From the NCBI GenBank assembly GCA_943350875.1, contig CALRAL010000001.1:4829-68828 (forward strand): 64,000 nucleotides of DNA. The letters run 5' to 3'. A program made the position numbers and the translations under genes. Source of the DNA: Candidatus Nomurabacteria bacterium. Lineage in GTDB: Bacteria; Patescibacteriota; Minisyncoccia; Phycocordibacterales; UBA9973. The notes beneath the pieces were generated by a model. It saw only the letters and a program-made list of their open reading frames with translations. It ran no database searches and was not told the DNA's origin. Positions 22,536-60,777 of the stretch are shown here, one piece after another; within the stretch, counting starts at the first letter, position 1, and every line of letters starts with the position of its first letter.

Positions 22536-22555
22536 AATTAAAAAAGAACTTAGCT

Positions 22556-22882: not shown

Positions 22883-22889
22883 CTCGTTT

Positions 22890-22965
22890 GCCGATGTAGC
22901 TCAGTTGGTAGAGCATCGCTTTCGTAAAGCGAGGGTCGACAGTTCAATCCTGTCCATCGGCTCCA
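22890..22965 (+). tRNA. tRNA-Thr (CGT) with encoded CCA
   Basis: GCCGATG-TA-GCTC-AGTTGGTA-GAGC-A-TCGCT-TTCGTAA-AGCGA-GGGTC-GACAG-TTCAATC-CTGTC-CATCGGC-T-CCA. The last ~5 nt coincide with the start of the recombinase-element inverted repeat. Confidence 0.85.
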
Positions 22966-25130: not shown

Positions 25131-25355
25131 ACAATAAAAAAGTAAAATATGTTATAGTATATTTGCTGACAGATAAATATATTTAGAGCATTCATTGATG
25201 GTTTTTCCGTCAATCGCGTCCAATATTGGCATCCCAATATGAGGAAACACGATTGACGGTGAATGCCGTTTATCTGTCAGCACCTCTTTGTTGGGGTGCC
25301 TATTTTGTTTTTAGGTATCCAATACAAAGATTTTATAAATATAAATCTTAATAAA

Positions 25356-26189: not shown

Positions 26190-26199
26190 TTAGAAATTT

Positions 26200-27153
26200 A
26201 TGGCTTTACATAATTTAACATTGGGAATCCCTGTAAGAAATGAATCATTAAACTTAAAACAATTTATTAATTCTTTAAACATTTCTGTCGATTATTTACA
26301 AAATATCTACAAAGATATCAAGATTGAAATTATAGTTTGCATAAATGGCTCTACGGACAATTCAGAAAATATTATAAAAAATGAAATAATTGCCTCACAT
26401 TTAGACGTCCATCTAATTTTTAGCTCGGAGGGTAAATTAAATGCAATCGATGCTATTTTAAATTCTAAAAAATACAATGATCTAATTGGATTTATTGATG
26501 CAGATACTTTACTTGAGGTGTCGGCAATTTATGAATTGTATGCAGAAATTGTAGATAACAAAAATTTATTTGCAGTGTATTCAAATATGACCCCTAGGGG
26601 TAATGATAGTTTTATTTATAGAATACAGAAAAGCCATTATGATTCACGTTTCTCAAATACGAGAGGATATATTCACGGAAGATTTTACATTTTAAAAAAT
26701 GCTGATTTATTAAAAGTTGAAAGAATAAAAAGAAATAATAAAAAATGGATTTTAGAATACGGTCCGTTAGTTGATGATATATATCTTTCAAGGGTAATTG
26801 TAGCGACTTATGGAGTTGGCGCCATAAAAGAAGTTGAAAAATCAATTATTTATTTTAAACCACCGCAAAATCTAATAGATTTTTTCTTTGGTTATCGTAG
26901 AATTATTATTGAGCTCAAAAGATTATCTTTTTTATATCCCGAACATAATTTTATTCAGAAAAAATATTTTTCAAAAAATAGGTATGGGTTTAAAAAATAT
27001 AAAAATTATGAACAAAAATTTTTATATTTAATTTATCAAATAATTGTTCATTTCATTAAACTGATTGTCGGTTTGGAAATATTATTAATTAATTTTAAAA
27101 TTATAAAATTAAAACATGTCTGGAAAACAACACACTCAACAAAAGTTATTTAA
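26200..27153 (+). CDS. Family-2 glycosyltransferase
   Basis: LTLGIPVRNESLNLKQFINSL...IVCINGSTDNSENII...GFIDADTLLE (GT2 DxD motif). Confidence 0.6.
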   Translation: MALHNLTLGIPVRNESLNLKQFINSLNISVDYLQNIYKDIKIEIIVCINGSTDNSENIIKNEIIASHLDVHLIFSSEGKLNAIDAILNSKKYNDLIGFIDADTLLEVSAIYELYAEIVDNKNLFAVYSNMTPRGNDSFIYRIQKSHYDSRFSNTRGYIHGRFYILKNADLLKVERIKRNNKKWILEYGPLVDDIYLSRVIVATYGVGAIKEVEKSIIYFKPPQNLIDFFFGYRRIIIELKRLSFLYPEHNFIQKKYFSKNRYGFKKYKNYEQKFLYLIYQIIVHFIKLIVGLEILLINFKIIKLKHVWKTTHSTKVI

Positions 27154-27154
27154 T

Positions 27155-27733
27155 ATGGACAAATATTCCAAGTTAAATTTAGCATGTGGCCCAAAGGTAA
27201 AAAATAAATTTAAATTACCTTGGCTAAATGTTGATATCGATGGAAAAGCAGCTGATTTTATCTGTGATATAATGGTATTACAGAAAGAATGGAGTGGTAA
27301 ATTTGAAGAAGTTAGGGCTTCTCATGTATTAGAGCATATTTTTTTAGACGATGTGCCAAAAGTTTTATCCGAATGGATACGAGTATTAAAACCAAACGGC
27401 GTGTTAAGAATCATAGTTCCTGATCTTGATATTGTAATTGAGTCTTTAAACAGTGGTATTGATCAGAAAAAAAGGAAATCTTTATCGGTCGATACTACTA
27501 CCCCGATTTTATCTCAAATTTATGGATGGGGTTATTGGACAAAAAATACAAAAAAGGAATGGAGACACAGAATGATATATAATGAGAAACTTATTATTAA
27601 GATTTTGAAAAATCAGAAAAAATTAAAAAATATAAAAACCTACAAACAAGATCAAGATCCAGCATTTATATTCAAAATAAAAGATGATTCACAAAATATT
27701 TTTTCTTTATGTGTCCAAGCTCAAAAAAAGTAA
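27155..27733 (+). CDS. SAM-dependent methyltransferase (class I)
   Basis: LNLACGPKV...LNVDIDGKAADFICD...LKPNGVLRIIVPD resembles methyltransf_11/23-type motifs I, II and post-II. Confidence 0.5.
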   Translation: MDKYSKLNLACGPKVKNKFKLPWLNVDIDGKAADFICDIMVLQKEWSGKFEEVRASHVLEHIFLDDVPKVLSEWIRVLKPNGVLRIIVPDLDIVIESLNSGIDQKKRKSLSVDTTTPILSQIYGWGYWTKNTKKEWRHRMIYNEKLIIKILKNQKKLKNIKTYKQDQDPAFIFKIKDDSQNIFSLCVQAQKK

Positions 27734-27775
27734 AGTCGATTATATTTATTAGTATTAATAGTTTAAAATAAAATT

Positions 27776-28261
27776 ATGGAACAACCAATGGATAATAAAA
27801 TGAGTAGCAAAATAGAATCAACTAATTTAAAAATTGAATTTGTAAATTTAACTTTAGGAATTGAACCCTCTAATATTGAGACTTCCCACATAAGTGCCAT
27901 ATTTCTAGTTGGCATAAAAGACGGGATGATACTCGCTGCAAGAAATGAAAGAGGGTGGGATATCCCAGGAGGTCACGTAGATGCTGATGATACAGATTTG
28001 TATTCTGCATTAGTACGAGAAGTAGATGAAGAATCAGGTGTAACACTCAAAAAAGCTAAGCCTTTTGCTATCATGAGATTTGATGGAAAAGATAAATCAA
28101 TGCTGTTTTATGTATCCGATGCTTTTGAATTAGAAGAGTTTATACCAAAGGAAGATGCGTTTGAAAGACAAATGATGCCCATTCCAGAATTTATAGAAAA
28201 ATATAATTGGAAGAAAAACGTAATTCAACCAATAATTGAATATGCTATTCAAAATAAATAA
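27776..28261 (+). CDS. Nudix hydrolase
   Basis: Nudix box GGHVDADDTDLYSALVREVDEESGV (Gx5Ex7REVxEExG). Confidence 0.75.
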   Translation: MEQPMDNKMSSKIESTNLKIEFVNLTLGIEPSNIETSHISAIFLVGIKDGMILAARNERGWDIPGGHVDADDTDLYSALVREVDEESGVTLKKAKPFAIMRFDGKDKSMLFYVSDAFELEEFIPKEDAFERQMMPIPEFIEKYNWKKNVIQPIIEYAIQNK

Positions 28262-28269
28262 GAATTTAA

Positions 28270-28602
28270 ATTAAAGTATTTACTCCTCTCAAAACTCTGA
28301 GAGCAAAAATTCAAAAAAATTAATTTGCCAAAAAAAATCAAGAAGCACGCGAAGCGAATTTTGCGAAATACTTTCCCCCAAACCCCCAGCATTTCGCAAA
28401 ATTTCGCTCGCGTTCCGCATTTCTGCACTCCGCCTCCTTTGCCCCCAAAACATTGTGGCGGAGTGCAGAGCATTCTCCCGCACTTCTGCTTCAGCAGAAG
28501 CTCTGTGCTTCGCACAGAGGCGCTTCAGCGCGCGGGGAACGCTTGTGGATATTCTCACGAATTTTTGATAAAGTAAGTTCGAGCGGAATCGTAAAGACAC
28601 TC
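28270..28602. repeat. Inverted repeat C, right copy; ends exactly at the prfB ATG
   Basis: See 24812-25130; ...CGTAAAGACACTC|ATG. Confidence 0.8.
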
Positions 28603-29484
28603 ATGGAAAAAGAAGAAATACAAAATAAAATAGGTACATTAGAAAAGGAAATGACAAGTCCAGATTTTTGGAATGATAAAATAAAAGCGCAAAATATCAT
28701 AAAAGAAATTGCTGAATTAAAGTCAAAGAAAGAGGGTTTTGGAAAATATGATAAAGGGAATGCAATCATCACTATTATCTCTGGCGCAGGAGGGGATGAT
28801 TCTGAAGATTTTGCAAATATGTTGCTCCAAATGTATGTGAAATATGCTGGGAAAAAAGGCTGGGGTGTTTCTTTCATTCATGAAAATAAAAATGAACATG
28901 GTGGTTATAAAAATGTATCTTTTGAAATAGAGGGAAAGGGCGCTTATGGGAATTTAAAAAACGAAGGAGGAGTGCATCGTCTCGTACGTATTTCTCCTTT
29001 TAATGCTAAAAAATTACGTCATACTTCTTTTGCACTGGTTGAGGTTTTGCCAAAATTCTCAAAACTCGAAGAGAAGGATTTTGTGATTCCAGAAGCGGAT
29101 TTGAAAATAGAATTTGCTCGCTCCGGTGGTCCTGGCGGGCAAAATGTGAACAAGAGAGAGACTGCAGTTAGAGTGGTGCATATTCCAAGTGGTATAGCTG
29201 TGCATGCTTCAAATGAGCGTTCGCAAGAGCAGAATAGGGAGCGAGCAATGGCAATCCTGCGGGCTAAAATATTCAAAAAAGCTGAACAAGATAAAAAAAC
29301 AATAGAAGAAAGTCTAAAATTAACTAAAAATACTCAGATAGAGTGGGGGAATCAGATTCGTTCGTATGTTTTGCACCCGTATAAAATGGTGAAAGACCAT
29401 AGGACAGAAGCAGAGACTTCCAATGTTGACGAAGTCCTCGCTGGCGATTTAGAACTATTCATTGAAGCGGAGAAAAATTTGTAA
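28603..29484 (+). CDS. prfB: Peptide chain release factor 2 (SPF motif), apparently without a programmed +1 frameshift and with a short N-terminus
   Basis: RISPFNAKK (SPF tripeptide anticodon), GGQNVNKRETAVR (GGQ). The single ORF runs from MEKEEIQ with no CUU-UGA-type shift site. The upstream in-frame extension belongs to the repeat. Confidence 0.8.
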   Translation: MEKEEIQNKIGTLEKEMTSPDFWNDKIKAQNIIKEIAELKSKKEGFGKYDKGNAIITIISGAGGDDSEDFANMLLQMYVKYAGKKGWGVSFIHENKNEHGGYKNVSFEIEGKGAYGNLKNEGGVHRLVRISPFNAKKLRHTSFALVEVLPKFSKLEEKDFVIPEADLKIEFARSGGPGGQNVNKRETAVRVVHIPSGIAVHASNERSQEQNRERAMAILRAKIFKKAEQDKKTIEESLKLTKNTQIEWGNQIRSYVLHPYKMVKDHRTEAETSNVDEVLAGDLELFIEAEKNL

Positions 29485-29503
29485 TTGTGATACAATTAGT
29501 AGT

Positions 29504-30286
29504 ATGAACCCTTGGATACAGCTAAGTATTGATTACGCAAATCAGAGAAGTTATTTGGATGATCTTTTTAAAGTTTATCCAACTATACCAGATGGTATAC
29601 GCGAAATTAATGAAGAACTTTGGAAAAATATAGAAAACTCCTTCAAAAGTAAAAACAATAAAAACTTAATTGAAAATTTAGTTAAGTTAGATTTATTTCC
29701 TATCAAAGATTCCTATGTTGCTTATTTAAAGAAAGATAAAACAGCTTCTCTAAGAAATCCAAAAACAATATCAAGATTAGCAGGGCGTTTATATGAAATG
29801 GGTTTGAATACTATCTATGAACGTTGTTCAGAGCCAAAAGAAACAAATAGACAAATTGGTCCGTTGTTTCGTCGTTGGTTGAGTAGCAAATCTTTAGGTG
29901 TTCCATACTTGGAATCTACAGAATTTTTAGCTACAAAAGAAAATGCTGTGCTAGATGCAGGTGATGCAGAAATGATGACTTTTGCTAAAAAACATTTTAA
30001 TTATAAACACAATAAAGGGTTAGATTTTATTGCTCGTTTTAATGGTAAATATGTAATTGGGGAAGCGAAATTCTTGACTGACTTTGGTGGACATCAAAAT
30101 GCCCAATTTAATGATGCTATTTCTACAATAAAAACTAAGCATGTAAATGCAGTTAAAATAGCTATTTTAGATGGAGTTCTTTATATTAAAGGAAATAATA
30201 AAATGTATAGAAGTATTACGACAAAATATAAAAAAGAAAATATAATGAGTAGTCTTGTATTACGTGAATTTCTTTATCAACTTTAA
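29504..30286 (+). CDS. Putative Type II restriction endonuclease (PD-(D/E)xK)
   Basis: GLDFIARFNGKYVIGEAKF (D...E-A-K); directly upstream of and co-oriented with a DNA methyltransferase; start trimmed to MNPWIQL. Confidence 0.5.
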   Translation: MNPWIQLSIDYANQRSYLDDLFKVYPTIPDGIREINEELWKNIENSFKSKNNKNLIENLVKLDLFPIKDSYVAYLKKDKTASLRNPKTISRLAGRLYEMGLNTIYERCSEPKETNRQIGPLFRRWLSSKSLGVPYLESTEFLATKENAVLDAGDAEMMTFAKKHFNYKHNKGLDFIARFNGKYVIGEAKFLTDFGGHQNAQFNDAISTIKTKHVNAVKIAILDGVLYIKGNNKMYRSITTKYKKENIMSSLVLREFLYQL

Positions 30287-30294
30287 ATTTTTAT

Positions 30295-31521
30295 ATGTTT
30301 ATAACATACAAAAACAAAAAAGAAGAATTTGAGATCTTAAATACTCCAAAAGCGAGCCTAGAAATTATTTCAGGGAAAGGTTCAAAAAATAAACTTATTC
30401 AAGGTGATAATTTAAGTATTCTTCAGTCTTTAATGAAAGATTATAATTTGAAAGGAAAAATTGATTTGATTTATATTGATCCGCCTTTTGCCACCAATAC
30501 TGATTTTAAAATAGGAGATAGAACAAGTACTATCAGTAGTAGCAATCTTGATGAAATTGCGTATAGCGATACATTAATTGGGGATGATTTTTTGGAGTTT
30601 TTAAGAGAGAGATTAATTTTGCTTCGTGAATTATTGTCAGAAAGAGGCTCTATTTATTTACATATTGATTATAAAATTGGTCATTATGTAAAATTGATAA
30701 TGGATGAAGTTTTTGGAGTAAAAAACTTTCGTAATGATATAACCAGAATTAAATGCAACCCAAAAAATTTTCATAGAAAAGCATATGGCAATGTGAAAGA
30801 TATGATACTTTTTTATACAAAAAATGGAAATCCTATTTGGAATGATCCTCGTGTTGCTTTTTCGAATGAAGACGAAGAACGGTTATTTAAAAAAACTGAT
30901 AAAGATGGAAGAAAATACACAACAATACCATTACATGCTCCAGGAGAAACAACAAAGGGAAATACGGGTAAAGAATGGCGTGGTGTTAAACCACCAAAAG
31001 GACGGCATTGGAGAACCGACCCAAAAATTCTTGAAGAATGGGACAAAGAAGGTTTGATTGAGTGGTCAAAAAATGATGTTCCAAGAAAAAAAATTTATAT
31101 TGATGAAAGGGATGGTAAAAAAACACAAGATATTTGGGAGTTTAAAGATCCGCAATATCCCAATTATCCAACCGAAAAAAATCTTAATCTGCTTAAATTT
31201 ATTATTTCCGCTTCATCTAATAAAGATAGTATTGTTTTAGATTGTTTTTGTGGTTCAGGTACAACATTAATAGGTGCACAAGAATTGGATAGGAATTGGA
31301 TAGGAATAGATCAGTCAGAACAAGCAATAAAAGTTATAAAAGAACGCTTAAATAAAATACAAAATGGTTTTTTTTCAAAAAAAGATTATGAATTTATTAT
31401 AGAAGGTAAAGAATTAATACATCCAAAATATACAATAGAAGATATGGTAAAAGGTATTACAAAGAAAAATAGACACAAGGAAGTTGATTGGGGGCCTCCA
31501 AGAGGTAAAGAAGTATGGTAG
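30295..31521 (+). CDS. DNA methyltransferase, beta-class (N6-adenine or N4-cytosine)
   Basis: IYIDPPFATNTDF (DPPF motif IV) N-terminal; LDCFCGSGTTLIGAQELDRNWIGID (motif I) C-terminal. Confidence 0.75.
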   Translation: MFITYKNKKEEFEILNTPKASLEIISGKGSKNKLIQGDNLSILQSLMKDYNLKGKIDLIYIDPPFATNTDFKIGDRTSTISSSNLDEIAYSDTLIGDDFLEFLRERLILLRELLSERGSIYLHIDYKIGHYVKLIMDEVFGVKNFRNDITRIKCNPKNFHRKAYGNVKDMILFYTKNGNPIWNDPRVAFSNEDEERLFKKTDKDGRKYTTIPLHAPGETTKGNTGKEWRGVKPPKGRHWRTDPKILEEWDKEGLIEWSKNDVPRKKIYIDERDGKKTQDIWEFKDPQYPNYPTEKNLNLLKFIISASSNKDSIVLDCFCGSGTTLIGAQELDRNWIGIDQSEQAIKVIKERLNKIQNGFFSKKDYEFIIEGKELIHPKYTIEDMVKGITKKNRHKEVDWGPPRGKEVW

Positions 31522-34914: not shown

Positions 34915-35517
34915 TTAAGAAAGTTTTTGTTTACGTTTTCGAATTAGGGAAACGATAAACATTGCAACAAGGGTGCCTATGGCAGCCATGGCCATATCTT
35001 TTGGTGTATCAAAGATGTCTCCTTGTGAACCATAGAATGAAGTAGCGAGGACTGGGTTCACAGTCTCGGCGGCGAGCCATTCAAATATCTCATATATTGC
35101 AGAGAAGGCGAGGATGGTTTCCATTGGTACATAATAACTCCAACCATTCTCTACTTTCTTTATATTTATTACAAATTCATGTACTGGGTAAAAAAATAAA
35201 AATCCAAACATAAAATGCGTGAATCTATCATACATATTTCTCGTAGATCCTAAGAATTCCCCCAAGCCATTTCCAAAAGGTACGCCTGTCACTCCATAAT
35301 GCGAAGTTACGAGTGGTAGGAGTAGGTATGCCACTATGAGGGTGAGAGATAAATTTGATATTTGGAGACGTTTTCCGAATATGCCAAAAAATATCAGCCC
35401 CACAAATATCGGGCTGTTCTCAAGCCACCAGTCTGACTGTGATGCCGGGGGGCGTATGCCTGACCATATAAGGACCACAACGAAAACTATCAGTAAAAAC
35501 CATTTATACTTGCTCAT
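34915..35517 (-). CDS. Integral membrane protein (DUF2238/YjdF-like)
   Basis: 200 aa, ~5 TM; family assignment tentative. Confidence 0.45.
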   Translation of the reverse strand: MSKYKWFLLIVFVVVLIWSGIRPPASQSDWWLENSPIFVGLIFFGIFGKRLQISNLSLTLIVAYLLLPLVTSHYGVTGVPFGNGLGEFLGSTRNMYDRFTHFMFGFLFFYPVHEFVINIKKVENGWSYYVPMETILAFSAIYEIFEWLAAETVNPVLATSFYGSQGDIFDTPKDMAMAAIGTLVAMFIVSLIRKRKQKLS

Positions 35518-35555
35518 TTATAAAATAAATCTTAACTCTTTTTTTATCCAAATTC

Positions 35556-35760
35556 AAGACAAAATGTTGATAAAAAAGACGTGCTGTGTCTCTTGAATAA
35601 AATCCGAACTTTTTTCCAAAACAATCCGGATGCTGACTAATACCGACCAGCGCCTCGCAAAGCCTCGGCGCTCCGCCCTCGCCCCATTCCGCCTTTCATT
35701 CTAATTTTTTTCGCGGGGGGATTCTTTTTGAAATTGTATGGGCGGAAACGGGGCTCGGTC
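35556..35760. repeat. Inverted repeat D, left copy (~200 bp, GC-rich); partner at 43195-43382
   Basis: The reverse complement of 43195-43382 is essentially identical (TGCTGTGTCTCTTGAATAAAATCCGAAC...CGCCTCGCAAAGCCTCGGCG...CGCGGGGGGATTC...GGCTCGGTCGGGC). Confidence 0.8.
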
Positions 35761-36207
35761 GGGCTTCTTCTAAGGAAGAAGCGGTCGGTAAATACGTGGT
35801 GTCTCGGACATTATACTATTTTTGATCGTCCGTGACCAAAGGAGTCCATCCTCGGCATTCGCCTCGGACATTTCCGCTAGGGCTACTCGCGCCTAGATGT
35901 CTAGGTTTGGCGCGTTTCCTCGCTCTACGGCACTGTGGTGCCGGAGCTCGGGCGCCAGCAGTTTGGGGGAAGGAAGGAATCCTTCCCCCAGCTTCGCCTC
36001 GTCTCGGCAGGGCTCGACCAACCGGCTCAGCCAACCCCCATCCTCGTTTTCATATCCGAGTATTTCTCAAGATTTTAGATTATCCTTTGTTTATATCGTC
36101 GGCGCTCATCCTTTAGCCACGGACGCCCGTCGCGGAAATGTCCGAGGCTCAAATTCGTATTGCACACTTGACCCACCCTCCCGTTCGCGTGTGCGCAAAA
36201 CCCCGCT
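35761..36207. ncRNA. GC-rich ~450-bp non-coding island with many nested hairpins; candidate structured RNA of unknown class
   Basis: Much more GC-rich than surrounding CDSs (as are the rRNA and tRNAs here). Long-range inverted pair CGCCTCGGACATTTCCGC (35858) / GCGGAAATGTCCGAGG (36128); perfect 9-bp stem GGGGGAAGG-AAGGAAT-CCTTCCCCC; a TTGGTC-N18-TATAAT-like promoter on the minus strand near 35800-35830. The ORFs here are Arg/Pro/Ala-rich and look spurious. Confidence 0.4.
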
Positions 36208-36240
36208 CGCAAGGACGAGAGGCGTGCGAGCGGGGCTCCC
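36208..36240 (-). terminator. Rho-independent terminator for the minus-strand operon (11-bp stem CCCCGCTCGCA...TGCGAGCGGGG, then a T-tract on the minus strand)
   Basis: Seen directly after the stop of the nuclease gene. Confidence 0.65.
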
Positions 36241-36990
36241 TTAATTTTCTAAAACTTTTCTTGCGTTCCAGTATGCACACCAATCACAATGCTCACCAGA
36301 TTTTGGTATCACATCACTTTCTAAACATTTTTTAATTTCAAACAAAGTTTTTTCAACCCAAGAATCATCGCCTTTGTGTTCAATCAAATTGACATCAAAA
36401 TCAATTCGTTTATCAAATGCTTGTCTATCCATTTTTCCAGTGCAATATACAAAATAACCAATATCAGAGACCTTTAGCCCATTCTGCCTCAAAAGCCACT
36501 GATACACCTCCATTTGGCGTTTATAGCCATCTTGCCACTCTTTATCCAGCGCTTTAACAGCTTCATCCTTTGCAGTGGCTTTATAATCCACGACAATATA
36601 CTCGTCTTTTCCGTTGATCCACAAATCATCAATCGCACCAGTTACCAAAAGTCCAGTCGGCTCATGCAAATATCTAATACCACCAAAATTTCTTCGCCAT
36701 TCATCAAGCTCTTTGTGAGACATTGGTCGTGCGTCAATTCCATATTCTTTTTGTAGTGGGTGCTGTTCGTTTTTTGTACGGTATGAATCAAATTCTTGTT
36801 TAAGAAGATAATCAACCGCACTATTGATAGAAAACGGAAATCCGGGTACTCGTTTTACACCAAGTTTGTTATCAATGTAAAAACATCGTGGACACTCTTT
36901 AAACAAATCAATTTTAGAACGAGAAAGTTTCCAGTTCTTTCCGCCATAATTCCACCCATCACCTCTATTTGCTTTATAGTATTCAGACAT
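36241..36990 (-). CDS. Cas4/RecB-like PD-(D/E)xK nuclease with four Cys (CxxC...CxxC), putative Fe-S cluster
   Basis: N-terminal CPRC, core GAIDDLWING...DEYIVVDYKATAK (D...E-x-x-x-D-Y-K), C-terminal HCDWC. Confidence 0.65.
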   Translation of the reverse strand: MSEYYKANRGDGWNYGGKNWKLSRSKIDLFKECPRCFYIDNKLGVKRVPGFPFSINSAVDYLLKQEFDSYRTKNEQHPLQKEYGIDARPMSHKELDEWRRNFGGIRYLHEPTGLLVTGAIDDLWINGKDEYIVVDYKATAKDEAVKALDKEWQDGYKRQMEVYQWLLRQNGLKVSDIGYFVYCTGKMDRQAFDKRIDFDVNLIEHKGDDSWVEKTLFEIKKCLESDVIPKSGEHCDWCAYWNARKVLEN

Positions 36991-36999
36991 AAAATTTTG

Positions 37000-38502
37000 T
37001 TAATTATAATATGAGTCAAACACTTGCACCTCCTTTTTGCTAATAAGAGTCTTCGTTTTGCCGATTTTTGCCTTATCAATATATGACCTATCCTCGATTG
37101 ATTTTTTAATCACTGCATCATCAATCCAATCTGTAACAAAGATATTTTGCGCTTCACCATCTACGGCTTTACACAATTTCTCATTAAGCGATAGTTTAAA
37201 TTTCAAACCAATCGACATTCTCTGTATCCAAATTTCAATTAGTCCAGTATTTGAAAGATTACAAATCTTATTCTGAATTTTTAGAAGTAGTTCTTTTTTA
37301 GATTTTATTGTTAGTTTTGATATACAACTCGATACTAAACCAGCGATCACGGGAAAAGCGTTTGGATTGTTATAAGCAATATCAATAAGCAAACTTGTTA
37401 TCAGTTTTTGTTGATTATAAAAATCTTTGTCATTAACCGCATCGAGAATTTTAGACAGTCTATTTTTAAGAGTTCCTGAATTTGGATGCCACTTTCCAAT
37501 TTGTTGGACAATCATTAACTGCCGGAGTAATTCTTTTTTTGATAATTTTTTAGGAACGGCTTCAAATTTAAGAGCCTCTATCTTGTCGGGTTTTATTGAG
37601 CCTGTAACAACATCGTCGCAAGAATATGTTTTATTAGTATTTAGACGGAAACCGAATCCTATCAGTGTTTCGCTTAGACATTTTAGAATTATATCTCCAT
37701 CCATTGTATCATTCGTGAAAATTCTATAATCATCTCGATACCGAAGTATGTGAAATTTTTTATCTTTCAACGTAGTATTAAGTTTGTTTGATAATTCAGT
37801 ATCAGCATAACCTAGGACTATCTCTGCTATAAAATCCATCAAAATACTTCCTTGTGGTATTCCATTAGTTTGACCATAAGACATTGCTTGAACATGGTGA
37901 TCAATTTTATTTCCAAATAAGTCTGCATATTTTTGCTTTTTCTTTGATTCTTCTTTTGTATGAATAGCCCAAGGTATTGAGTGCGTATAAATAGAGCCAT
38001 AACAATCAGTAATATCAGTCTGATATAAAAACTTATATTCCAAAGCTAGAGTTACAGATTTCTTTTCTACATTATTAACCCATTGCGAAATTTGAGATGC
38101 TCTTTGTTTAGATTTATATCTTGGCAATACAGGAATACTTTCGCATTCGATATTTTTATCACCTTGAAATTCTTTAAATCTATCTTGTAAAGATTTCCAG
38201 TTATCTTTCTGTGTGATTACATTTACTAGAGAAACATACAACAACGGGTTTATAATTTCATATTTTCTCCAAGCATATTTTCCATCCTTATTACCATATA
38301 AGATATGATTAACTGTTTCGTATTTTTTCGCTTTTTTAAGATCGTCAAATGTGAGTTCTTTATCTTTAAAATTCTTTGTAATAACAGAAAGTAATTTACT
38401 AAATGAAAAATAGGGTGGCAATTCTATATTAGAAAAGGATTCTTGGTTTATAAAGAATTTTTTTGCATCTGTTGGGTTTAAATTTAAGACATTTTTTGAC
38501 AT
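37000..38502 (-). CDS. Reverse transcriptase of the Abi/UG (defence-associated) type with an alpha-helical C-terminal extension
   Basis: RT motifs QTDITDCYGSIYTHSI (motif 2), NGIPQGSILMDFIAEIVL (motif 4, PQG), HILRYRDDYRIF (YxDD variant), LIGFGFRLNTNKT (motifs 6/7). About 180 aa N-terminal and ~200 aa helical C-terminal regions, with no maturase/En domains. Confidence 0.7.
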   Translation of the reverse strand: MSKNVLNLNPTDAKKFFINQESFSNIELPPYFSFSKLLSVITKNFKDKELTFDDLKKAKKYETVNHILYGNKDGKYAWRKYEIINPLLYVSLVNVITQKDNWKSLQDRFKEFQGDKNIECESIPVLPRYKSKQRASQISQWVNNVEKKSVTLALEYKFLYQTDITDCYGSIYTHSIPWAIHTKEESKKKQKYADLFGNKIDHHVQAMSYGQTNGIPQGSILMDFIAEIVLGYADTELSNKLNTTLKDKKFHILRYRDDYRIFTNDTMDGDIILKCLSETLIGFGFRLNTNKTYSCDDVVTGSIKPDKIEALKFEAVPKKLSKKELLRQLMIVQQIGKWHPNSGTLKNRLSKILDAVNDKDFYNQQKLITSLLIDIAYNNPNAFPVIAGLVSSCISKLTIKSKKELLLKIQNKICNLSNTGLIEIWIQRMSIGLKFKLSLNEKLCKAVDGEAQNIFVTDWIDDAVIKKSIEDRSYIDKAKIGKTKTLISKKEVQVFDSYYN

Positions 38503-38527
38503 ATTCTTTAGTAAACATGGAACGGAA

Positions 38528-40435
38528 CTATCTCCATAAATCTAAAATCGTATTCCTAAGCAAAACATCCTCTTTATTTAGATTGTTTCTTAATTTCTCT
38601 ACTTCATCGTACTTTTTCACTATTTTTATTTGTTCTGAAATTGATGGTAGTGGAATATATATTTTTTCCAATAAATCAGGCGGTGTTAGATATTTTCTAT
38701 TTGTTGATCCAGATGAAGCATTTGCCACTATAGACTCAAAGTCGCCTGATGAAATCACAAGATTAAGAAATTTTGGCAAGATTAAGTCAGTGTTTAATTT
38801 TGCGGTAGCCATGTTCGAAGTCACAACACAATCAGAATAATCTTTAGTTATTAATCCGAATCCACCAGATTTTGTATCAACCTTACACCAGAACAAAGAA
38901 TCATTTTTAACCGGTCTATATTTTAGAGTTTTCTTTAATTCTTTTCCCTTTACAACTTTAGAAATAAAACATCCTTTACCATGCGACCGCACTCCAAGAA
39001 CTTTATATTCCTTTTCATCGACAAGTGATATGGGTTTCTCATTATAAAATGATAGTACTTTTGATAATTTTACAAAATCATCATTTTCAGCATTATGATT
39101 TTTCAAGTATTCATTAGCTAACAGCTTTGATTGTTTACTTAGTAAAATACTTTCTTTTTTAACTATATGAAATACTAAATTGGTTTTGTGTGCTAGTTTA
39201 TAACTTCCTAAAATTGATTTCTTGATTTCATCTAGCAATTCTACACATAATGGTAAATCATTTTTTTCAAATTCTTTTCTTTGTAACCCCAAATCATAGC
39301 CGTCATTTTGAATATCGATAAAATACACAGAATCACTCTTTTTTGAAATCTCTTTATCAAAAAAGAGTATATTTGTTTTGTTGTCTGCGTAAGGATTAAA
39401 AACTCCTGAGGGAAGTGAGATTACAGCCCACAACCAATTATCTTTAACCAATTTTGTTCTAAGAGATCTAAAAGAGCTTTGGGTGTTAAATACTACTCCT
39501 TCAGGAACGATTACTCCGCCTCTACCGTTAATCCCTAAATGTTCTAACATATAATCAACAAAAAGAACTTCCGCTTTATTTGCTTGAACAGAAAATCTTT
39601 TGTGTGGCTTGATTCCGCCTGTTGGTGTCATAAAGGGAGGATTTGCCATTATTACATCGTACATTTCGTCCCACTTCTCATCGCTTGAAAGTGTGTCGTA
39701 TTCAAAAATTTTAGGCTCGGCGAAACCATGCAAATACATATTTACTTTTGAAAGTTTTACCATGTCAGGAGAAATATCATAGCCGACTAAATTATTCATC
39801 AATTTTTCTTTTTCGTCGGGGGTAAGTGGCTTGTCTTTTTGTTGTTTGAGAATATGTTTGTATGCAGAAATTAAAAATCCAGCCGTACCGCAAGCAGGAT
39901 CTAAAATTTTATCTCCTTTCTTTGGGTCTACTACCTCGGCTATAAAATCAATAATGTGGCGTGGTGTGCGAAATTGTCCTGCATCGCCTTGAGAGCCGAG
40001 AATAGAGAGTAAATATTCAAAAGCATTTCCTAAATCTTCGCTGTGGTCATAAGTAAAACCGTTAATTTCTTTCAAAAACAAAGTTAAAGTTTCGGGACTT
40101 CGGTATGGAAGAAAGGCATCTTTGAAAATATCTCGGAATAATTGTGGGATGTGTGGATTTTGAGACATTTTAGCAACGGCTTCGCCATAAAGCTCTAAAC
40201 GCTCATGTCCACCGAGTTTTTGGTCAAGTAATTTCGTCCACGCATATTTTTCAAAACCTTTTGTGAAAAATCTTGCTTTTCCGCCAAGTTCAATCGCTTC
40301 TTTATCCATATCGTCCATAAACTTGTAAATCAAAGCCGTTGTGATTTGTTCAACTTGGGCTTTTGGGTCGGGGACTTTGCCGACAAGAATATTGCGGGCA
40401 GAGTCAATTTTTCGTTTTGTTTCTTGAGTAAGCAT
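38528..40435 (-). CDS. N6-adenine DNA methyltransferase fused to a single target-recognition domain (M-S fusion)
   Basis: Motif I ILDPACGTAGFLIS; motif IV MANPPF; C-terminal TRD ending in the HsdS-type conserved block IYIPLPSISEQIKIVKKYDEVEKL. Confidence 0.8.
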   Translation of the reverse strand: MLTQETKRKIDSARNILVGKVPDPKAQVEQITTALIYKFMDDMDKEAIELGGKARFFTKGFEKYAWTKLLDQKLGGHERLELYGEAVAKMSQNPHIPQLFRDIFKDAFLPYRSPETLTLFLKEINGFTYDHSEDLGNAFEYLLSILGSQGDAGQFRTPRHIIDFIAEVVDPKKGDKILDPACGTAGFLISAYKHILKQQKDKPLTPDEKEKLMNNLVGYDISPDMVKLSKVNMYLHGFAEPKIFEYDTLSSDEKWDEMYDVIMANPPFMTPTGGIKPHKRFSVQANKAEVLFVDYMLEHLGINGRGGVIVPEGVVFNTQSSFRSLRTKLVKDNWLWAVISLPSGVFNPYADNKTNILFFDKEISKKSDSVYFIDIQNDGYDLGLQRKEFEKNDLPLCVELLDEIKKSILGSYKLAHKTNLVFHIVKKESILLSKQSKLLANEYLKNHNAENDDFVKLSKVLSFYNEKPISLVDEKEYKVLGVRSHGKGCFISKVVKGKELKKTLKYRPVKNDSLFWCKVDTKSGGFGLITKDYSDCVVTSNMATAKLNTDLILPKFLNLVISSGDFESIVANASSGSTNRKYLTPPDLLEKIYIPLPSISEQIKIVKKYDEVEKLRNNLNKEDVLLRNTILDLWR

Positions 40436-40438
40436 AAT

Positions 40439-42925
40439 TTACATATAAGTATTTACGGACACATAATCTTTGACATATTCCGGTATCACTTCACGAAAGC
40501 CGTTTAGCTCTTTGAAATCTCCCATTGATACTTTTGGATTTGTAGCAAAACGACCATATTCTTTTGATTCCACAATCTCACGAATTTCATTGTCGGTTAT
40601 GTATGCCTTTAGGAAATTTTTGATTGGATAGTAATATTTGCTATCGGGTTTGTAGATAGAGATAAACTTTTCAAATTCTTCTTCCAAAAGCTCATCTTTA
40701 TTTTTGAATTTATCAAGGCGACCAAAAATTTTGTCTATGACTTCTCGTAGGGAAATGCGACGATCAACTTTTGCTGATTTTCGGAGTTTTTCAAGGTTGT
40801 AAAATTCCTGCGGTTTATCGAAAATCTCCGTTTTTACATATTCCTCAACGGCTTGCATATCGCCCTGTTCATATTTCTCTTTGATAAATGAATCAGCTTT
40901 GATTGTGTCCTCAAATTTCTCAAAGAGTTTCCTATCAACTTTCATTCCCTCAACGCCTACGGCTTTTTCGTTGAAAGTTTTAAGTGGGTCAGGAGTTCCA
41001 ATAATTATTTCGTCAATATCAACTCCTCCGCCACCTGTACCACCAGTTCCAATTTTTGGTATTTTTAGAATCTCGTCATAGTTAAACTTTTCCTCAAAAT
41101 ATTCGCAGTTTGCAAAGAAATCAAAAAGCTTGAATTTGTCTTTTTCGGTATTATTTTTGTCGCCATCGTTTTCAAACGAAAAAACATATTTTCTTGTACC
41201 ACGCCCTTTGATCTGAATGAAATCTGTCGGCGAGAAAATCGGGCGCATAAGTCCGAGGTTTAATATATTTTGGCAGTCATAGCCAGTAGTCATCATCCCG
41301 ACAGTTACGCAAACTCTCGTTTTACTTGATTTATACCCATCGAGCCATTTTGTATGTCCGTTGAGATTATCATTTGAAAAATTGATTGTGAATTGCTGGG
41401 CGTCGCTGATATTTGAAGTAACTTGAACGGCAAAATCGGAATTGTATTTATTCGGGTAGTGCTTATCAGCTAATTGGTTAAGTATTTGCGTAATTTTTGT
41501 CGCATGGTTTTGACTAACGCAATAAATAATACTTTTACCAATTTCTCCACTCACTGGATCAACAAGAGCATTTTTGAGAAAAGTTTCGCAAAAAATCGTG
41601 TTTGTCTTATCCGAGAAAAATTTCCTTTCAAAATCCTTTTGGTAAAAAGTTTGTTCCTCTTTTCCTTCCTCCGTATCAACAAGCAGAGAATATCCCTCAT
41701 CAGATAAAAGCTGTGTTGTTATTTCTGTTCGAGCGTCAGCAACGATAGGATTTACCAAAAATCCCTCTTTCACACCATCTAACAAGCTGTAACGGAAAGT
41801 TGGCTCACCGTTTTCGCAACCAAAAGTAGTGTATGTATCAAGAAGTTGCCGACGCTCCCAAGCTCGCGGGTCTTTTTCGCCTAATTTTACAGGGTCAATG
41901 CCTTTGAGATAATTTTTCGGTGTTGCTGTAAGTCCCAGTTTATACCCAACAAAGTATTCAAAAACCGCTCTGCTATTTCCGCCGATTGATCGGTGCGCTT
42001 CGTCTGAAATAATAAGGTCAAAATCTGTCGGAGAGAAAAGTTTTTGATATTTATCAGAAATGCTTTGAATCGTGGTAACGACAATTTCTGCCTTTCGCCA
42101 ATCATCACGATTTTCTTTATATATCACAGTCGTATAATCTTTTGAAAGCCACTTTTTGAAATTTTTTGCCGCCTGATCTTCAAGCTCTATGCGGTCTACT
42201 AAAAACAATACTCTTTTCGCGTTTCCTGTTTTAAGAAATAATTTTATAACGGCGGCACAAGTAAGGGTTTTACCTGTTCCAGTCGCCATTTCAAAAAGAT
42301 AACGATCTTTTCCACTACTAGCCCAGCCCTGTAATGCCTCAATCGCTTTCAACTGGTACGGACGCAGAAATTTTAGGTCGTATTCTTTTACAAGTTCAGA
42401 TTTCTTGTCGTCGTTCCATCGTGGGTCTTTTTGATAACTAGGATTTTGTGTTAGTGCGATATAATCGGCAGTCAATTTTTCGTCCGCAAGTTTTTTCGGG
42501 TCTGGTTTGAATGCTTCAAAATGCTTCAGAGATTCCTGTGTTGGGAAAACTGTAATTATTTGTGGATTACCTCGCTCCAAATCCCAAAAATAATGTATAT
42601 TGCCATTTGAAAGAATTATAAAACGAACATTGAGCGATTGAGCATATCGACGAGCCTGTTCTTTTCCGTTCAGAGGGTCTTTCTCTTCTGATTTCGCCTC
42701 CAAAACTAAATACGGGAAACCTTTTTCGTCGAGCAAGAGAAAATCGACAAAGCCATCTTTCGTTTTATCAAAATCATTACCAAGCTCATCAACGGCATTT
42801 TTTGTCAGCTTCACATTGTTTTCTAGAGCAATGTTTGCTGTGCCTTTTTCATCGTCAAAAAATCTCCAGTTGGATTCTTGAAGTAAATTATTGATTTTGA
42901 TTCTGGCTTTGGCTTCTTTTTGCAT
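40439..42925 (-). CDS. Restriction subunit: N-terminal Mrr/PD-(D/E)xK nuclease plus SF2 helicase-like ATPase (HsdR / Type ISP-like)
   Basis: VDFLLLDEKGFPYLVLEAKSEEK nuclease motif; Walker A MATGTGKT; DEAH-box LIISDEAHRS; 828 aa. Confidence 0.8.
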   Translation of the reverse strand: MQKEAKARIKINNLLQESNWRFFDDEKGTANIALENNVKLTKNAVDELGNDFDKTKDGFVDFLLLDEKGFPYLVLEAKSEEKDPLNGKEQARRYAQSLNVRFIILSNGNIHYFWDLERGNPQIITVFPTQESLKHFEAFKPDPKKLADEKLTADYIALTQNPSYQKDPRWNDDKKSELVKEYDLKFLRPYQLKAIEALQGWASSGKDRYLFEMATGTGKTLTCAAVIKLFLKTGNAKRVLFLVDRIELEDQAAKNFKKWLSKDYTTVIYKENRDDWRKAEIVVTTIQSISDKYQKLFSPTDFDLIISDEAHRSIGGNSRAVFEYFVGYKLGLTATPKNYLKGIDPVKLGEKDPRAWERRQLLDTYTTFGCENGEPTFRYSLLDGVKEGFLVNPIVADARTEITTQLLSDEGYSLLVDTEEGKEEQTFYQKDFERKFFSDKTNTIFCETFLKNALVDPVSGEIGKSIIYCVSQNHATKITQILNQLADKHYPNKYNSDFAVQVTSNISDAQQFTINFSNDNLNGHTKWLDGYKSSKTRVCVTVGMMTTGYDCQNILNLGLMRPIFSPTDFIQIKGRGTRKYVFSFENDGDKNNTEKDKFKLFDFFANCEYFEEKFNYDEILKIPKIGTGGTGGGGVDIDEIIIGTPDPLKTFNEKAVGVEGMKVDRKLFEKFEDTIKADSFIKEKYEQGDMQAVEEYVKTEIFDKPQEFYNLEKLRKSAKVDRRISLREVIDKIFGRLDKFKNKDELLEEEFEKFISIYKPDSKYYYPIKNFLKAYITDNEIREIVESKEYGRFATNPKVSMGDFKELNGFREVIPEYVKDYVSVNTYM

Positions 42926-42931
42926 AAAAAT

Positions 42932-43219
42932 TTATTTCAAAAGTTCGCTACTGGAAATCCCCAACGCATTAGCAATCTTTTCCAAGGTGGAAAGAGTGGG
43001 GTTCATACGACCATTCTCAATATTGCTAATATATGCTCTATCCACACTCAAAGCGGTCGCAAGGTCTCCTTGCGACATATTCTTTTTCAGACGCCATTTT
43101 CTAAGGTTTTCACCTAATTTCTTGCCAGATGACATATTTTGTATTTTATTCTCACTTGCATCATATTGCAATCGTGTAATATAATGCACATAGCCCGACC
43201 GAGCCCCGTTTCCGCCCAT
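42932..43219 (-). CDS. XRE-family HTH transcriptional regulator (putative controller of the defence operon)
   Basis: LRKWRLKKNMSQGDLATALSVDRAYISNIENGRMNPTLSTLEKIANALGISSSEL. Confidence 0.75.
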   Translation of the reverse strand: MGGNGARSGYVHYITRLQYDASENKIQNMSSGKKLGENLRKWRLKKNMSQGDLATALSVDRAYISNIENGRMNPTLSTLEKIANALGISSSELLK

Positions 43220-43382
43220 ACAATTTCAAAAAGAATCCCCCCGCGAAAAAAATTAGAATGAAAGGCGGAATGGGGCGAGGGCGGAGCGCCGAGGCTTTGC
43301 GAGGCGCTGGTCGGTATTAGTCAGCATCCGGATTGTTTTGGAAAAAAGTTCGGATTTTATTCAAGAGACACAGCCCTGAATG
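43195..43382. repeat. Inverted repeat D, right copy
   Basis: See 35556-35760; abuts the recombinase-element inverted repeat at 43371. Confidence 0.8.
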
Positions 43383-45068
43383 CAAATCGCCGTTTTCGCC
43401 AAAATGCGGAGCGTCGCAAAGCGACGCGACCGGAGTTTCCGCCAGAATTCGCCAAGGGTTTTTGAAATCCAAAAGGAGCGAGCGGGACGCGAGGCGGGGG
43501 TTCTCTGTTCTCCGAACAGTCAAAACAAAGTTTTGTGAGCCAATCTTGAAGCGATAATTATCAATATTTAACATAAACCTTTTTCTATGAACAAATTCTT
43601 TCTCTACGCTAGAAAATCTACCGACGAGCCCGATCGTCAGATTTTGAGTATTGAAGCGCAGATTGACGAGTTGAAAGAATTTGCCACGCGAGAGCAGTTA
43701 GAGATTCTTGAAACTTTTATTGAATCACAGACCGCTAAAGAGCCGGGTAGACCTATTTTCAACAATATGCTCTCGCTCATAGAAAAAGGAAAAGCGTCGG
43801 GAATTTTAGCTTGGCACCCCGATAGATTAGCGAGAAATAGTATTGATGGCGGAAAGATAATCTATCTGTGCGACCTTGGCAAAATTAAAGAGCTAAAATT
43901 CCCGACCTTTTGGTTTGATGCTACGCCACAAGGTAAGTTTATGTTAAATATTGCTTTTGGGCAGAGCAAATACTATGTAGATAATCTTTCAGAGAATGTA
44001 AAGCGTGGACTTCGACAAAAAGTAAGACGAGGCGAACAAAGTGGTCAAGCTCCGACAGGATATTTGAATGACAAACTAAACAAGAAAATTATTCCCGACC
44101 CTGAAAGATTTCGCCTCGTCAGGAAAATGTTCGAAGTCTACGCTACTGGAAATTATTCTCTGAAAGAAACAAGGAATTTGCTCGCCCAAAAGGGCTTGGT
44201 GTCTAAAAATGGTAAAGTTCTCACTATTTCAAACACACAAATGATATTGAAAAATCCTTTTTACTACGGAATGTTTTTATTTAATCGAGAACTTTACCAA
44301 GGAAAGCACGAGCCAGCGATTTCAAAGAAACTTTTTGATAAGTGCGCAGAGGTATCGGCGAGGAACGCTCACCCAACAAAGCGAGGAATTATCAAACACA
44401 CTTTTCGCGGAATATTTTTTTGCGGAGAATGTGGCTGTGGTATCACCAGCGAAATACAAAAAGGTCATACCTATTATCGTTGCACCAAAAAGAAAGGTGT
44501 TTGCACACAAAAATATATCCGCGAAGAATTCCTCGCCGAACGAGTAAATGAGACTATCAAAAAGGTTTCTTTGCCGTCCGAGTGGAAAGAATTCATGCTC
44601 GCTGAACTAGATAAGGAGCAAGCGAGCAGTTTCCACTCTGACGAGCTTTTCGTTCAAAATTTGAAAAATCAAATCAAAAGTGTTGAGGAGACGCTGGACA
44701 GGCTTCTTGACGCTCATTTGGACAGCACAATTACGAGCGATGAGTATATCGCCAAAAAGCAAAAGCTCCTCAACCAGAAAATTGATTTTTCAGAGAAATT
44801 GAAAGATTTTGAACGAAAAGGCAATCGCTGGCTCGAACTTTCTAAACAATTTATTTTAGACAGCAACCAAGCCTTAATTATCGCTTCCGAAGAAAATCTC
44901 GAAGCCAAAAGAGATTTTCTTAAAAAGATTGGCTCGAACCCCCGCCTCGCGTCCCGCTCGCTCCTTTTGGATTTCAAAAACCCTTGGCGAATTCTGGCGG
45001 AAACTCCGGTCGCGTCGCTTTGCGACGCTCCGCATTTTGGCGAAAACGGCGATTTGCATTCAGGGCTG
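43371..45068 (+). mobile_element. Serine-recombinase element 2: recombinase gene bounded by perfect ~133-bp terminal inverted repeats (43371-43503 / 44936-45068)
   Basis: The reverse complement of 44936-45068 equals 43371-43503 (CAGCCCTGAATGCAAATCGCCG...GCGTCGCAAAGCGACGCGACC...GAGGCGGGGGTTC). The outer end overlaps the 3' end of tRNA-Gln. Shares the GCGTCGCAAAGCGACGC hairpin core with element 1. Confidence 0.75.
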
Positions 45069-45125
45069 CGGGTCAGGGACTCGAACCCCAATACCATCCT
45101 CCAGAGGGATGTGTCCTACCGTTAG
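43587..45125 (+). CDS. Large serine recombinase, paralogue of the 22901-24493 gene
   Basis: FLYARKSTDEPDRQILSIEAQIDELKEF...AWHPDRLARNSIDGG...NPFYYG...CGECGCG...YYRCTKKKGVC. The C-terminus reads through the TIR and the antisense tRNA, so the true end is uncertain. Confidence 0.8.
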   Translation: MNKFFLYARKSTDEPDRQILSIEAQIDELKEFATREQLEILETFIESQTAKEPGRPIFNNMLSLIEKGKASGILAWHPDRLARNSIDGGKIIYLCDLGKIKELKFPTFWFDATPQGKFMLNIAFGQSKYYVDNLSENVKRGLRQKVRRGEQSGQAPTGYLNDKLNKKIIPDPERFRLVRKMFEVYATGNYSLKETRNLLAQKGLVSKNGKVLTISNTQMILKNPFYYGMFLFNRELYQGKHEPAISKKLFDKCAEVSARNAHPTKRGIIKHTFRGIFFCGECGCGITSEIQKGHTYYRCTKKKGVCTQKYIREEFLAERVNETIKKVSLPSEWKEFMLAELDKEQASSFHSDELFVQNLKNQIKSVEETLDRLLDAHLDSTITSDEYIAKKQKLLNQKIDFSEKLKDFERKGNRWLELSKQFILDSNQALIIASEENLEAKRDFLKKIGSNPRLASRSLLLDFKNPWRILAETPVASLCDAPHFGENGDLHSGLRVRDSNPNTILQRDVSYR

Positions 45126-45135
45126 ACGAACCCGC
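45067..45135 (-). tRNA. tRNA-Gln (CTG)
   Basis: Minus-strand GCGGGTT-CG-TCTAACGGTAGGACA-CATCC-CTCTGGA-GGATG-GTAT-TGGGG-TTCGAGT-CCCTG-ACCCGC-A. Short D-arm; moderate confidence. Confidence 0.6.
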
Positions 45136-45192
45136 AATATAATGATAGAATAATACAATAATAGTTTTTAATCAAATAGTTTTAAATTCATT

Positions 45193-59156: not shown

Positions 59157-60777
<1,621 letters not shown>

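Follow-up and report, generated by a model that had tools for sequence, protein, structure and literature searches.

Does a reverse transcriptase (RT) that lies next to a Cas4-like nuclease, in an operon that also encodes a restriction-modification (R-M) system, represent a new kind of defense system? The question is raised by five genes in a 64-kb stretch of DNA (the window), which is AT-rich (about 25–45% GC) and whose relatives in homologue searches are of Patescibacteria origin. The genes encode an XRE-family regulator, an HsdR-like protein (R), a methyltransferase fused to a target recognition domain (TRD; M-TRD), the RT, and a PD-(D/E)xK nuclease (Table 1). A preliminary description of the locus had proposed that the RT and the nuclease form a pair that could not be placed among the described types of defense, perhaps with a GC-rich, RNA-like region as its non-coding partner. 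Our analysis bears out the genes and their classes, but it does not support a novel system made up of RT, nuclease, and a partner RNA. We think it fairly likely that the region comprises a single operon of known defense modules, independent of one another, that is carried as cargo by a mobile element.

By profile and structure comparisons, the RT is an ordinary polymerase of the AbiP2 family (UG/Abi class 1) and so adds one more member to an established family. The PADLOC model for AbiP2 matches residues 2–499 of 500 (profile positions 4–487 of 489) with E = 6e-178, and the next-best models, Drt6 (E = 4e-57) and then UG14 and Drt4 (4e-57 or worse), are far weaker. The RT also matches the structure of Abi-P2 (PDB 7R08, E = 1e-76) in an alignment that extends through residue 451, within the C-terminal helical (alpha-repeat) domain. 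The VRYRDDYRIF motif is identical between the two proteins, YRDD included, and Y31 of the RT aligns to residue 61 of 7R08, which is the priming Tyr61. In Abi-P2, Tyr61 primes template-independent DNA synthesis (Figiel et al., PMC9508834). AbiP2 is counted among the multi-domain stand-alone UG/Abi proteins, and the AbiP2 of phage P2-EC30 gives protection as a stand-alone protein (Mestre et al., PMC9226505). Thus the RT resembles Abi-P2 in its full-length profile match, its RT-like and C-terminal helical domains, its YRDD motif and priming tyrosine, and its length (about 500 amino acids). It differs in its low identity, just about 33% along 99% of the length, to the RT of phage P2-EC30 (one of the E. 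coli P2-prophage RTs that define the family), in lying on a recombinase element instead of in a P2 hotspot, and in usually preceding, in this patescibacterial clade, a conserved nuclease. AbiP2, whose hallmarks include assembly into trimers or hexamers and an abortive-infection phenotype, has been described chiefly from prophages and plasmids of E. coli; this locus places it in Patescibacteria.

The preliminary description had put the RT in the Abi/UG class and not with the RTs of group II introns or retrons. The profiles agree: the RT scores 43.6 bits against the group II RT/maturase model, whose cut-off is 300, and Pfam finds RVT_1 alone, with no maturase or endonuclease domain. A search of positions 35400–36400 against Rfam at E ≤ 1 gave no match, so no group II intron or retron RNA was found beside the RT. 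The statement that the arrangement fits no described type is not supported for the RT, given its full-length match to AbiP2.

The nuclease, from its modeled fold and its motifs, is a Cas4-like exonuclease-fold protein, as had been suggested. PDDEXK_1 matches with E = 8e-14, and a Foldseek search with the AlphaFold2 model (pLDDT 79) returned the nuclease domains of Cas4, Exo5, RecE, AdnAB, and AddB with TM scores of 0.4–0.5. Among 32 homologues, which are 78–93% identical and have 111 invariant columns in common, the RecB/Cas4 motif set is invariant (D121, D135-x-K137, and Q159xxxY163), and so are the cysteines at both termini (C33xxC36 and C235xxC238). In other words, the DYK motif and the N- and C-terminal CxxC motifs that had been reported are all present, as is YRDD in the RT. 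However, the nuclease misses both curated cut-offs for Cas4, with 21.5 bits against 22.7 for Cas_Cas4 (PF01930) and 29.7 bits against 65 for TIGR00372. Also, the cysteines of Cas4 and AddB follow a 1+3 pattern (C...CxxC...C), whereas those of the nuclease are arranged 2+2 (CxxC...CxxC). No cas genes are among its neighbors in the window or in the surveyed loci, although the whole window was not scanned for CRISPR arrays. The nuclease shares the fold class and the D...DxK...QxxxY motifs of Cas4, AddB/AdnAB, Exo5, and RecE, which are PD-(D/E)xK exonucleases that have a metal-cluster staple, and like them it has cysteines at both termini, but unlike Cas4 or Exo5, it belongs to a huge and very uniform Patescibacteria clade found at the ends of defense islands. 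We found no match among 50,697 phage records and no informative match among PDB sequences.

The distribution of the nuclease bears on whether it is a partner of the RT. We searched for homologues in a collection of 5.8 billion proteins and obtained at least 8000 clusters, with all of the scored ones at E ≤ 0.001. The best 120 clusters are 78–94% identical, and the sources of the best matches are almost all Patescibacteria lineages; the wider family, clustered at 50%, has 271 clusters at E ≤ 1e-30. We then compared 80 species-representative genomes, in which DNA similarity to the window starts about 20 nt or less from the nuclease's start codon and ends at its stop codon. The nuclease is the sole gene that these genomes have in common: any other gene family occurs in at most 11 loci, and no conserved synteny was found around the nuclease across the 80. 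(We also considered an integron-like attI site 5' of the nuclease, but the 80 loci show AT-rich sequence with no motif.) In 63 of the loci, there is a close upstream gene on the same strand, usually 2–20 nt away and encoding 72–1106 amino acids. This gene is AbiP2 in 4 loci and something else in the other 59. Pfam domains of the 63 upstream genes include RVT_1 (7 genes), ResIII (5), N6_Mtase (3), and Eco57I (3), as well as SLFN helicase, OLD-TOPRIM/AAA_15, UvrD, HerA, T5orf172, and RhuM-Fic. In a 1-in-3 sample of them, 14 of 20 match PADLOC defense models at E ≤ 1e-6 (HerA, Old/GajA, GajB, retron RT, REase I/II/III, IetA, AriA/AbiL, and several PDC candidates). These contexts indicate that the nuclease is a generic, conserved Patescibacteria gene that ends many different defense islands and is not specific to the RT.

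In three loci, a helix-turn-helix (HTH) gene and a gene of 305–306 amino acids lie directly upstream of the nuclease (L021 8719–9995, L023 2834–4110, and L029 7799–9075). By score, the L023 copy is a retron-type RT (PADLOC RT_VI, E = 2e-62). In L021 and L029, this HTH-RT module stands behind Type III or Type I R-M genes, which mirrors the order in the window (R-M, RT, nuclease).

The nuclease also moves horizontally among Patescibacteria, to judge from its sequence divergence. In two genomes whose CTP synthases (pyrG) are 58% and 60% identical to the window's, the nucleases are 85% and 61% identical; the nuclease thus varies at equal pyrG divergence. Other copies are 92–95% identical between genomes of different candidate phyla, and one metagenome-assembled genome (MAG) has two copies (L020 and L035). 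This situation resembles the defense hotspots of P2/P4 prophages and the defense islands of E. coli, where unrelated defense systems, AbiP2 among them in the hotspots, swap at a fixed spot by conserved genes (PMC9122126, PMC10121019). The difference is that in Patescibacteria, the fixed neighbor is one nuclease gene, which itself moves between distant lineages. We found no description of Patescibacteria defense hotspots with an island-terminal nuclease in the literature we searched, which was covered incompletely and is weak evidence of novelty.

How did the operon arrive in the window? From the repeats and the insertion point, it is cargo of a large serine recombinase (LSR) element that inserted at the 3' end of tRNA-Gln. 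The A/A' pair of inverted repeats encloses the GC-rich module and the whole operon, and the B'/B pair encloses the LSR gene (Table 1). A' and B' overlap by 4 nt (CAGC), and B ends at the discriminator end of tRNA-Gln. The crossover CAGC takes in the end of the acceptor of this tRNA, its discriminator, and one base more, and the a-type arm ends have a common motif beside CAGC that resembles the T-arm and acceptor sequence of tRNA-Gln. Read from the tRNA, the order is tRNA/B' - recombinase - B/A - XRE...nuclease - GC-rich module - A'/flank. Therefore, the internal B/A junction is the exact reverse complement of the joined ends A'/B'. These features would fit a circular element in which two modules, both bounded by repeats, are linked through a pair of inverted attP copies, one of which recombined into the tRNA. 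We speculate that the arms might also act as outward promoters; scans of the arms for sigma-70-type promoters found no convincing candidate on the strand from which the LSR would be transcribed.

The LSR matches a PHROG integrase family (E = 1e-77) and has relatives of 443–535 amino acids. We found 7994 clusters of homologues at E ≤ 1e-30, of which the best 120 are at 64–96% identity. Many homologues are known only from contigs of about 1.8–2.4 kb, as would be expected if assemblies break at such repeats. In its Resolvase, Recombinase, and zinc-ribbon domains, its specific site at a tRNA 3' end, and its accessory or defense cargo, the element is like other LSR elements (phiC31/Bxb1, SCCmec Ccr, and XisF). 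It differs from them in that recombinase and cargo each lie inside inverted repeats of 100–310 nt. Furthermore, it contains an inverted copy of its own joined ends, whereas classical elements leave short hybrid att sites only. No description of serine recombinases with such inverted repeats turned up in our literature search, but its coverage was again incomplete, which makes it weak evidence that the design is new. In its geometry, the element may be likened to the yeast 2-micron plasmid with its inverted repeats.

The same plan occurs elsewhere. A second element in the window, whose 530-aa recombinase is 47% identical to the first, has inner arms (22961–23106 / 24674–24819) that are 100% complementary and surround the recombinase. 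Its outer arms (about 24817–25127 / 28288–28602) are 92–93% complementary and surround four genes, three of which are annotated as a glycosyltransferase, a methyltransferase, and NUDIX. The outer arm stops precisely at the start codon of prfB. L107 (1987–11562) has the full double set of repeats beside tRNA-Gln, with a 7.3-kb, XRE-led cargo that encodes Dam-like methyltransferases, a trypsin-like protease, and unknowns but not the nuclease. L106 (9811–11541) and L108 (93–1859) have repeat - recombinase - repeat beside tRNA-Gln. Thus the LSR is adjacent to tRNA-Gln in four independent loci, counting the window. In L089, which has both RT and nuclease, repeats of at least 111 nt surround an XRE-led cargo.

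Both LSR genes in the window (43587–45125 and 22901–24493) read without a stop through the adjacent arm into the tRNA gene. It is therefore the att region that encodes the last 60 or so residues of both recombinases, and these residues would be altered by inversion of the segment or excision of the element. Separately, in L096 (2341–4252), which has an AbiP2 homologue (63% identical), a different LSR runs into the 3' end of the tmRNA gene, which hints at yet another recombinase element with this RT as cargo.

The GC-rich module between the nuclease and the left arm is real and strongly structured, in agreement with the preliminary description. Compared to shuffled sequence, its fold has z-scores of −6.4 (minus strand) and −5.2 (plus strand); a stem of 17 bp closes the structure, and there is a long-range stem of 22 nt (35861–35882 / 36127–36148). 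The first helix of the minus-strand fold is the hairpin at the likely operon terminator, which is kept in L014 and L010 and was not called by a consensus terminator scan. L014 has a copy of the module that is 89–94% identical, in which one helix has 3 compensatory pairs; a Shedu-type gene (SduA_C) lies between nuclease and module there, and the upstream DNA is not assembled. The L010 contig stops 13 nt into the module sequence. Of the nine other loci with both RT and nuclease, seven lack the module 3' of the nuclease (L008, L027, L032, L088, L089, L091, and L097; L039 and L090 were not checked). Because of these absences, and its place behind a Shedu-type gene in L014, the proposal that the module is the RT's non-coding partner is not supported: the RNA partners of DRT systems (such as DRT2 or DRT9) co-occur with their RTs, and this module does not. 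Rfam had nothing for the region at either gathering or permissive thresholds (E ≤ 1), and rRNA only for five related loci. Since the module is missing from RT loci and adjoins the left arm, and since GC-rich hairpins also make up the arms of the window's second element, we take it for a module at the end of the mobile element and not for a template of the RT. A GC-rich stretch 3' of the nuclease in L032 looked like a second RNA-like module, but it proved to be a high-GC protein-coding gene. Coding genes of about 60% GC lie just 3' of the nuclease in both L032 (10941–11650) and L089 (10544–12448), in loci that are otherwise 35–38% GC; they resemble recent foreign insertions.

Several observations weigh against a set of independent modules. 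They would favor a dedicated two-gene defense system of an AbiP2-type RT and a Cas4-like nuclease, in which the nuclease would be the effector, or would process the DNA product of the RT, and the GC-rich RNA might be a third component. In ten loci, the RT and the nuclease lie within about 15 nt of each other (9 nt in the window), with RTs 58–100% and nucleases 54–100% identical to those of the window. All of the AbiP2 relatives that we found at 70% identity or above (window, L008, L027, L032, L039, and L088–L091) have the nuclease or its remnant within about 15 nt downstream. L097 (RT 58%) also has it close downstream, and the adjacency holds even where the nuclease has diverged to 54–55%. In L008, L088, and L089, the RT+nuclease block has 86–88% DNA identity and sharp borders in otherwise unrelated contexts. 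Because the block travels with such borders across contexts, RT and nuclease might be functionally linked in this AbiP2 clade. Also, our PADLOC sample consists of model matches and not of verified systems, and we infer both the nuclease's activity and role and the operon's transcription as one unit. However, a different gene stands upstream of the nuclease in 59 of 63 loci, and the RT occurs without the nuclease in L095 (67% identical; annotated as Moraniibacteria), L096 (63%), L098 (49%), and L092 and L093 (35–36%). In L090, the RT is intact, yet the nuclease match beside it is in two pieces, with residues 101–131 unaligned. Furthermore, the AbiP2 of P2-EC30 protects alone (PMC9226505), its phage records lack such a nuclease, and the GC-rich region is missing from the other RT loci checked. 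So we consider a dedicated pair quite improbable. The preliminary description had itself named what would count against the pairing: a nuclease that is a routine recombination protein, co-located by chance in related genomes. In spirit, this is what we found, except that the co-location reflects a position in defense islands, not a routine recombination gene.

We also considered that the nuclease might be a chromosomal housekeeping gene, for repair or DNA uptake, and that the spot upstream of it might be a favored landing site for defense islands, in which case the nuclease would have no function in defense. This would account for the very strong purifying selection on the nuclease (the 111 invariant columns), for the uniform 77–78% identity of four Andersenbacteria copies, for the often ordinary genes downstream (TspO, transporters, and a P-type ATPase), and for the proximity of pyrG in three loci. 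But it seems inconsistent with the horizontal movement of the nuclease, whose identity does not track host distance, with the two copies in one MAG, and with the lack of conserved flanking synteny. Besides, the nuclease is inside repeat-bounded cargo in the window, and probably also in L014 and L089. We view the housekeeping explanation as unlikely. Finally, metagenome assemblies may join inverted copies, and several contigs end within the repeats, so the inverted-repeat frame could be an artifact of assembly or amplification around an ordinary chromosomal locus. This seems hardly credible. An independent assembly (ERZ27280322) has the same arrangement and junctions over 16.9 kb at 99.7% identity, while its A arms are 97.8% identical, with 1 mismatch and 2 gaps. 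Moreover, the outer arms of the second element have diverged, public genomes that are unrelated and come from other projects have the same design (L106, L107, and L108), and the repeats border exactly on the 3' end of the tRNA. Several assemblies do break at arm A. Contigs with identical flanking proteins all agree with the window or end inside repeats, and among them we found neither an empty tRNA-Gln/DUF2238 site nor the opposite orientation of a segment.

If the operon is a set of independent modules on an LSR element, then the HsdR-like protein would supply a nuclease and an ATP-driven motor, and HsdM, with its own single recognition domain, would probably act as a dimer at a site that is symmetric or bipartite. 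As its homology to the enzyme of known structure suggests, AbiP2 would prime on its own Y31 and would make untemplated single-stranded DNA during abortive infection, with neither an RNA template nor a partner gene required. Because the nuclease has a fixed last position in defense operons, we propose that it may be a general helper in DNA-end processing; our guess is a general DNA-end exonuclease that completes the destruction of DNA already broken by the upstream system, whatever that system is. Both the cargo and the recombinase gene lie between long inverted repeats, and these repeats adjoin each other at the crossover point.

More tentatively, we suggest two linked ideas, which we regard as possible but somewhat doubtful. 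One is that these LSR elements form a widespread and apparently undescribed patescibacterial family with nested repeats (in the order tRNA / repeat b / recombinase / b' / a / cargo / a' / flank), where the joined ends of the element recur, inverted, at the internal b'/a junction. The other is that the nuclease is a shared terminal component of defense islands. If so, the b'/a geometry would permit flip-flop isomers, two-way integration, or repeat-driven exchange of modules; and if the elements are active, nested inverted repeats centered on the crossover would be relevant to the ways in which serine integrases can be set up to invert segments or to exchange modules. The nuclease might cooperate with any upstream system, AbiP2 included, and might replace the degradation of DNA after restriction that is done elsewhere by RecBCD or AddAB. 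Patescibacteria have very few CRISPR systems, and their defenses are little studied. One extremely conserved nuclease gene could serve as a marker for their defense islands and could be used to mine for new systems. The framing as a new RT-nuclease defense system fails, and this is of consequence because the locus would otherwise be misfiled as a new DRT type.

We turn to the R-M pair, which had been described as a split Type ISP system. We read it as a Type I-like system in which a half-size S is fused to M, and "split ISP" as an analogy. R has an N-terminal HSDR_N PD-(D/E)xK domain followed by a superfamily 2 (SF2) ResIII motor (HSDR_N_2, E = 2e-7; ResIII, E = 2e-39; PADLOC REase_I, E = 2e-56), and it matches a Type I HsdR in PDB (3H1T, E = 2e-29). 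M-TRD matches N6_Mtase (E = 1e-53), PADLOC MTase_I (E = 2e-96), and Type I HsdM chains in PDB (5YBB, E = 8e-41), and in its translation, DPACGTAGF is followed by NPPF. The expectation of a gamma-class methyltransferase with a single TRD is upheld: Methylase_S matches one half-size stretch (residues 498–621), where PADLOC has its one match to Specificity_I (E = 3e-31, residues 452–630). Thus R and M have the hallmarks of Type I enzymes (an HsdR with PD-(D/E)xK and SF2 motor domains, and a gamma-class N6A HsdM). R is closest to HsdR of the EcoAI type (EcoAI/FtnUII, family IB), and an XRE or C-protein-like gene lies in front, as in Type I systems. They differ from Type I systems in lacking a separate HsdS with two TRDs (the operon has no hsdS ORF, and its sole TRD-sized match is fused to HsdM), and R scores 225.8 bits against the NCBIfam model for EcoAI/FtnUII R, under the equivalog cut-off of 550. 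The single TRD is shared with Type ISP enzymes (LlaGI/LlaBIII), but those are single polypeptides, whereas here the activities are on two ORFs with a stop codon and 3 nt between them. Also, a PDB sequence search at E ≤ 1e-3 returned no LlaGI or LlaBIII chain for R or M. In L016 and L029, homologues of R are about 80% identical and those of M are 66–71% identical. These M proteins have 648 and 815 amino acids, and the match stops before the C-terminal recognition-domain region of the window's M, a pattern that would fit swapping of specificity domains.

The regulator at the head of the operon has the HTH_3 domain (E = 4e-19) that the earlier XRE assignment implied, and it matches the PADLOC models Control_protein (E = 1e-17) and HTH_VI (E = 3e-17). 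The cargo of L005, L089, and L107 is likewise XRE-led. The true start of the window's regulator is probably the internal ATG at 43135, which would give 67 amino acids, since the long ORF has its first 28 nt inside the inverted repeat and there is a promoter-like site at 43171–43143. All five ORFs are on the minus strand within 36241–43219, with gaps of 6, 3, 25, and 9 nt, and they lie where the preliminary description had placed them, with domain calls that agree with it.

Table 1. Positions of the operon, its carrier, and related features in the 64-kb window
Feature	Position	Strand	Remarks
XRE/Cro-C1 HTH regulator	42932-43219	-	Operon gene 1; first cargo gene
HsdR-like R, 828 aa	40439-42925	-	Operon gene 2
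HsdM-TRD fusion (M-TRD), 635 aa	38528-40435	-	Operon gene 3
AbiP2-family RT, 500 aa	37000-38502	-	Operon gene 4
PD-(D/E)xK nuclease, Cas4/RecB/Exo5 fold, 249 aa	36241-36990	-	Last operon gene
Likely operon terminator	36196-36240	-	GC-rich hairpin, then T run; directly 3' of the nuclease stop codon
GC-rich structured module	35766-36240		Between nuclease and left repeat arm
Arm A, outer left end	35583-35765		183 nt, 100% complementary to 43192-43374; abuts host flank upstream of DUF2238
Arm A', internal	43192-43374		Outer end with conserved motif AAGTTCGGATTTnnTTCAnnAnnnACAGC beside crossover
Arm B', internal	43371-43503		133 nt, 100% complementary to 44936-45068
Large serine recombinase (LSR)	43587-45125	+	Resolvase, Recombinase, Zn_ribbon_recom
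Arm B	44936-45068		Abuts 3' end of tRNA-Gln
tRNA-Gln(CUG), integration target	45063-45137	-	ARAGORN, Rfam
Second LSR element, same plan	22890-28602		At 3' end of tRNA-Thr(CGU), tRNA 22890-22965

Other features of the window lie outside the element. A separate Type II R-M pair (a Tsp45I-family endonuclease and an N6_N4 methyltransferase; 29462–31521) is found between prfB and ftsE; therefore, the window holds at least two R-M systems plus AbiP2. Rfam matches a group I intron over the full model (78 bits) on the minus strand at 21303–21535, between two plus-strand ORFs and near a cluster of tRNAs (22340–22965). The match to 16S rRNA (59158–60777) spans 1620 nt, compared to 1533 positions in the model, which suggests an insertion. 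Just downstream of the 16S, a pair of 42-nt inverted repeats (61059–61100 / 62476–62517) brackets 1.4 kb. And a direct repeat of 115 nt, 86% identical, is present at 13089–13203 and 13480–13594, with the copies 391 nt apart.

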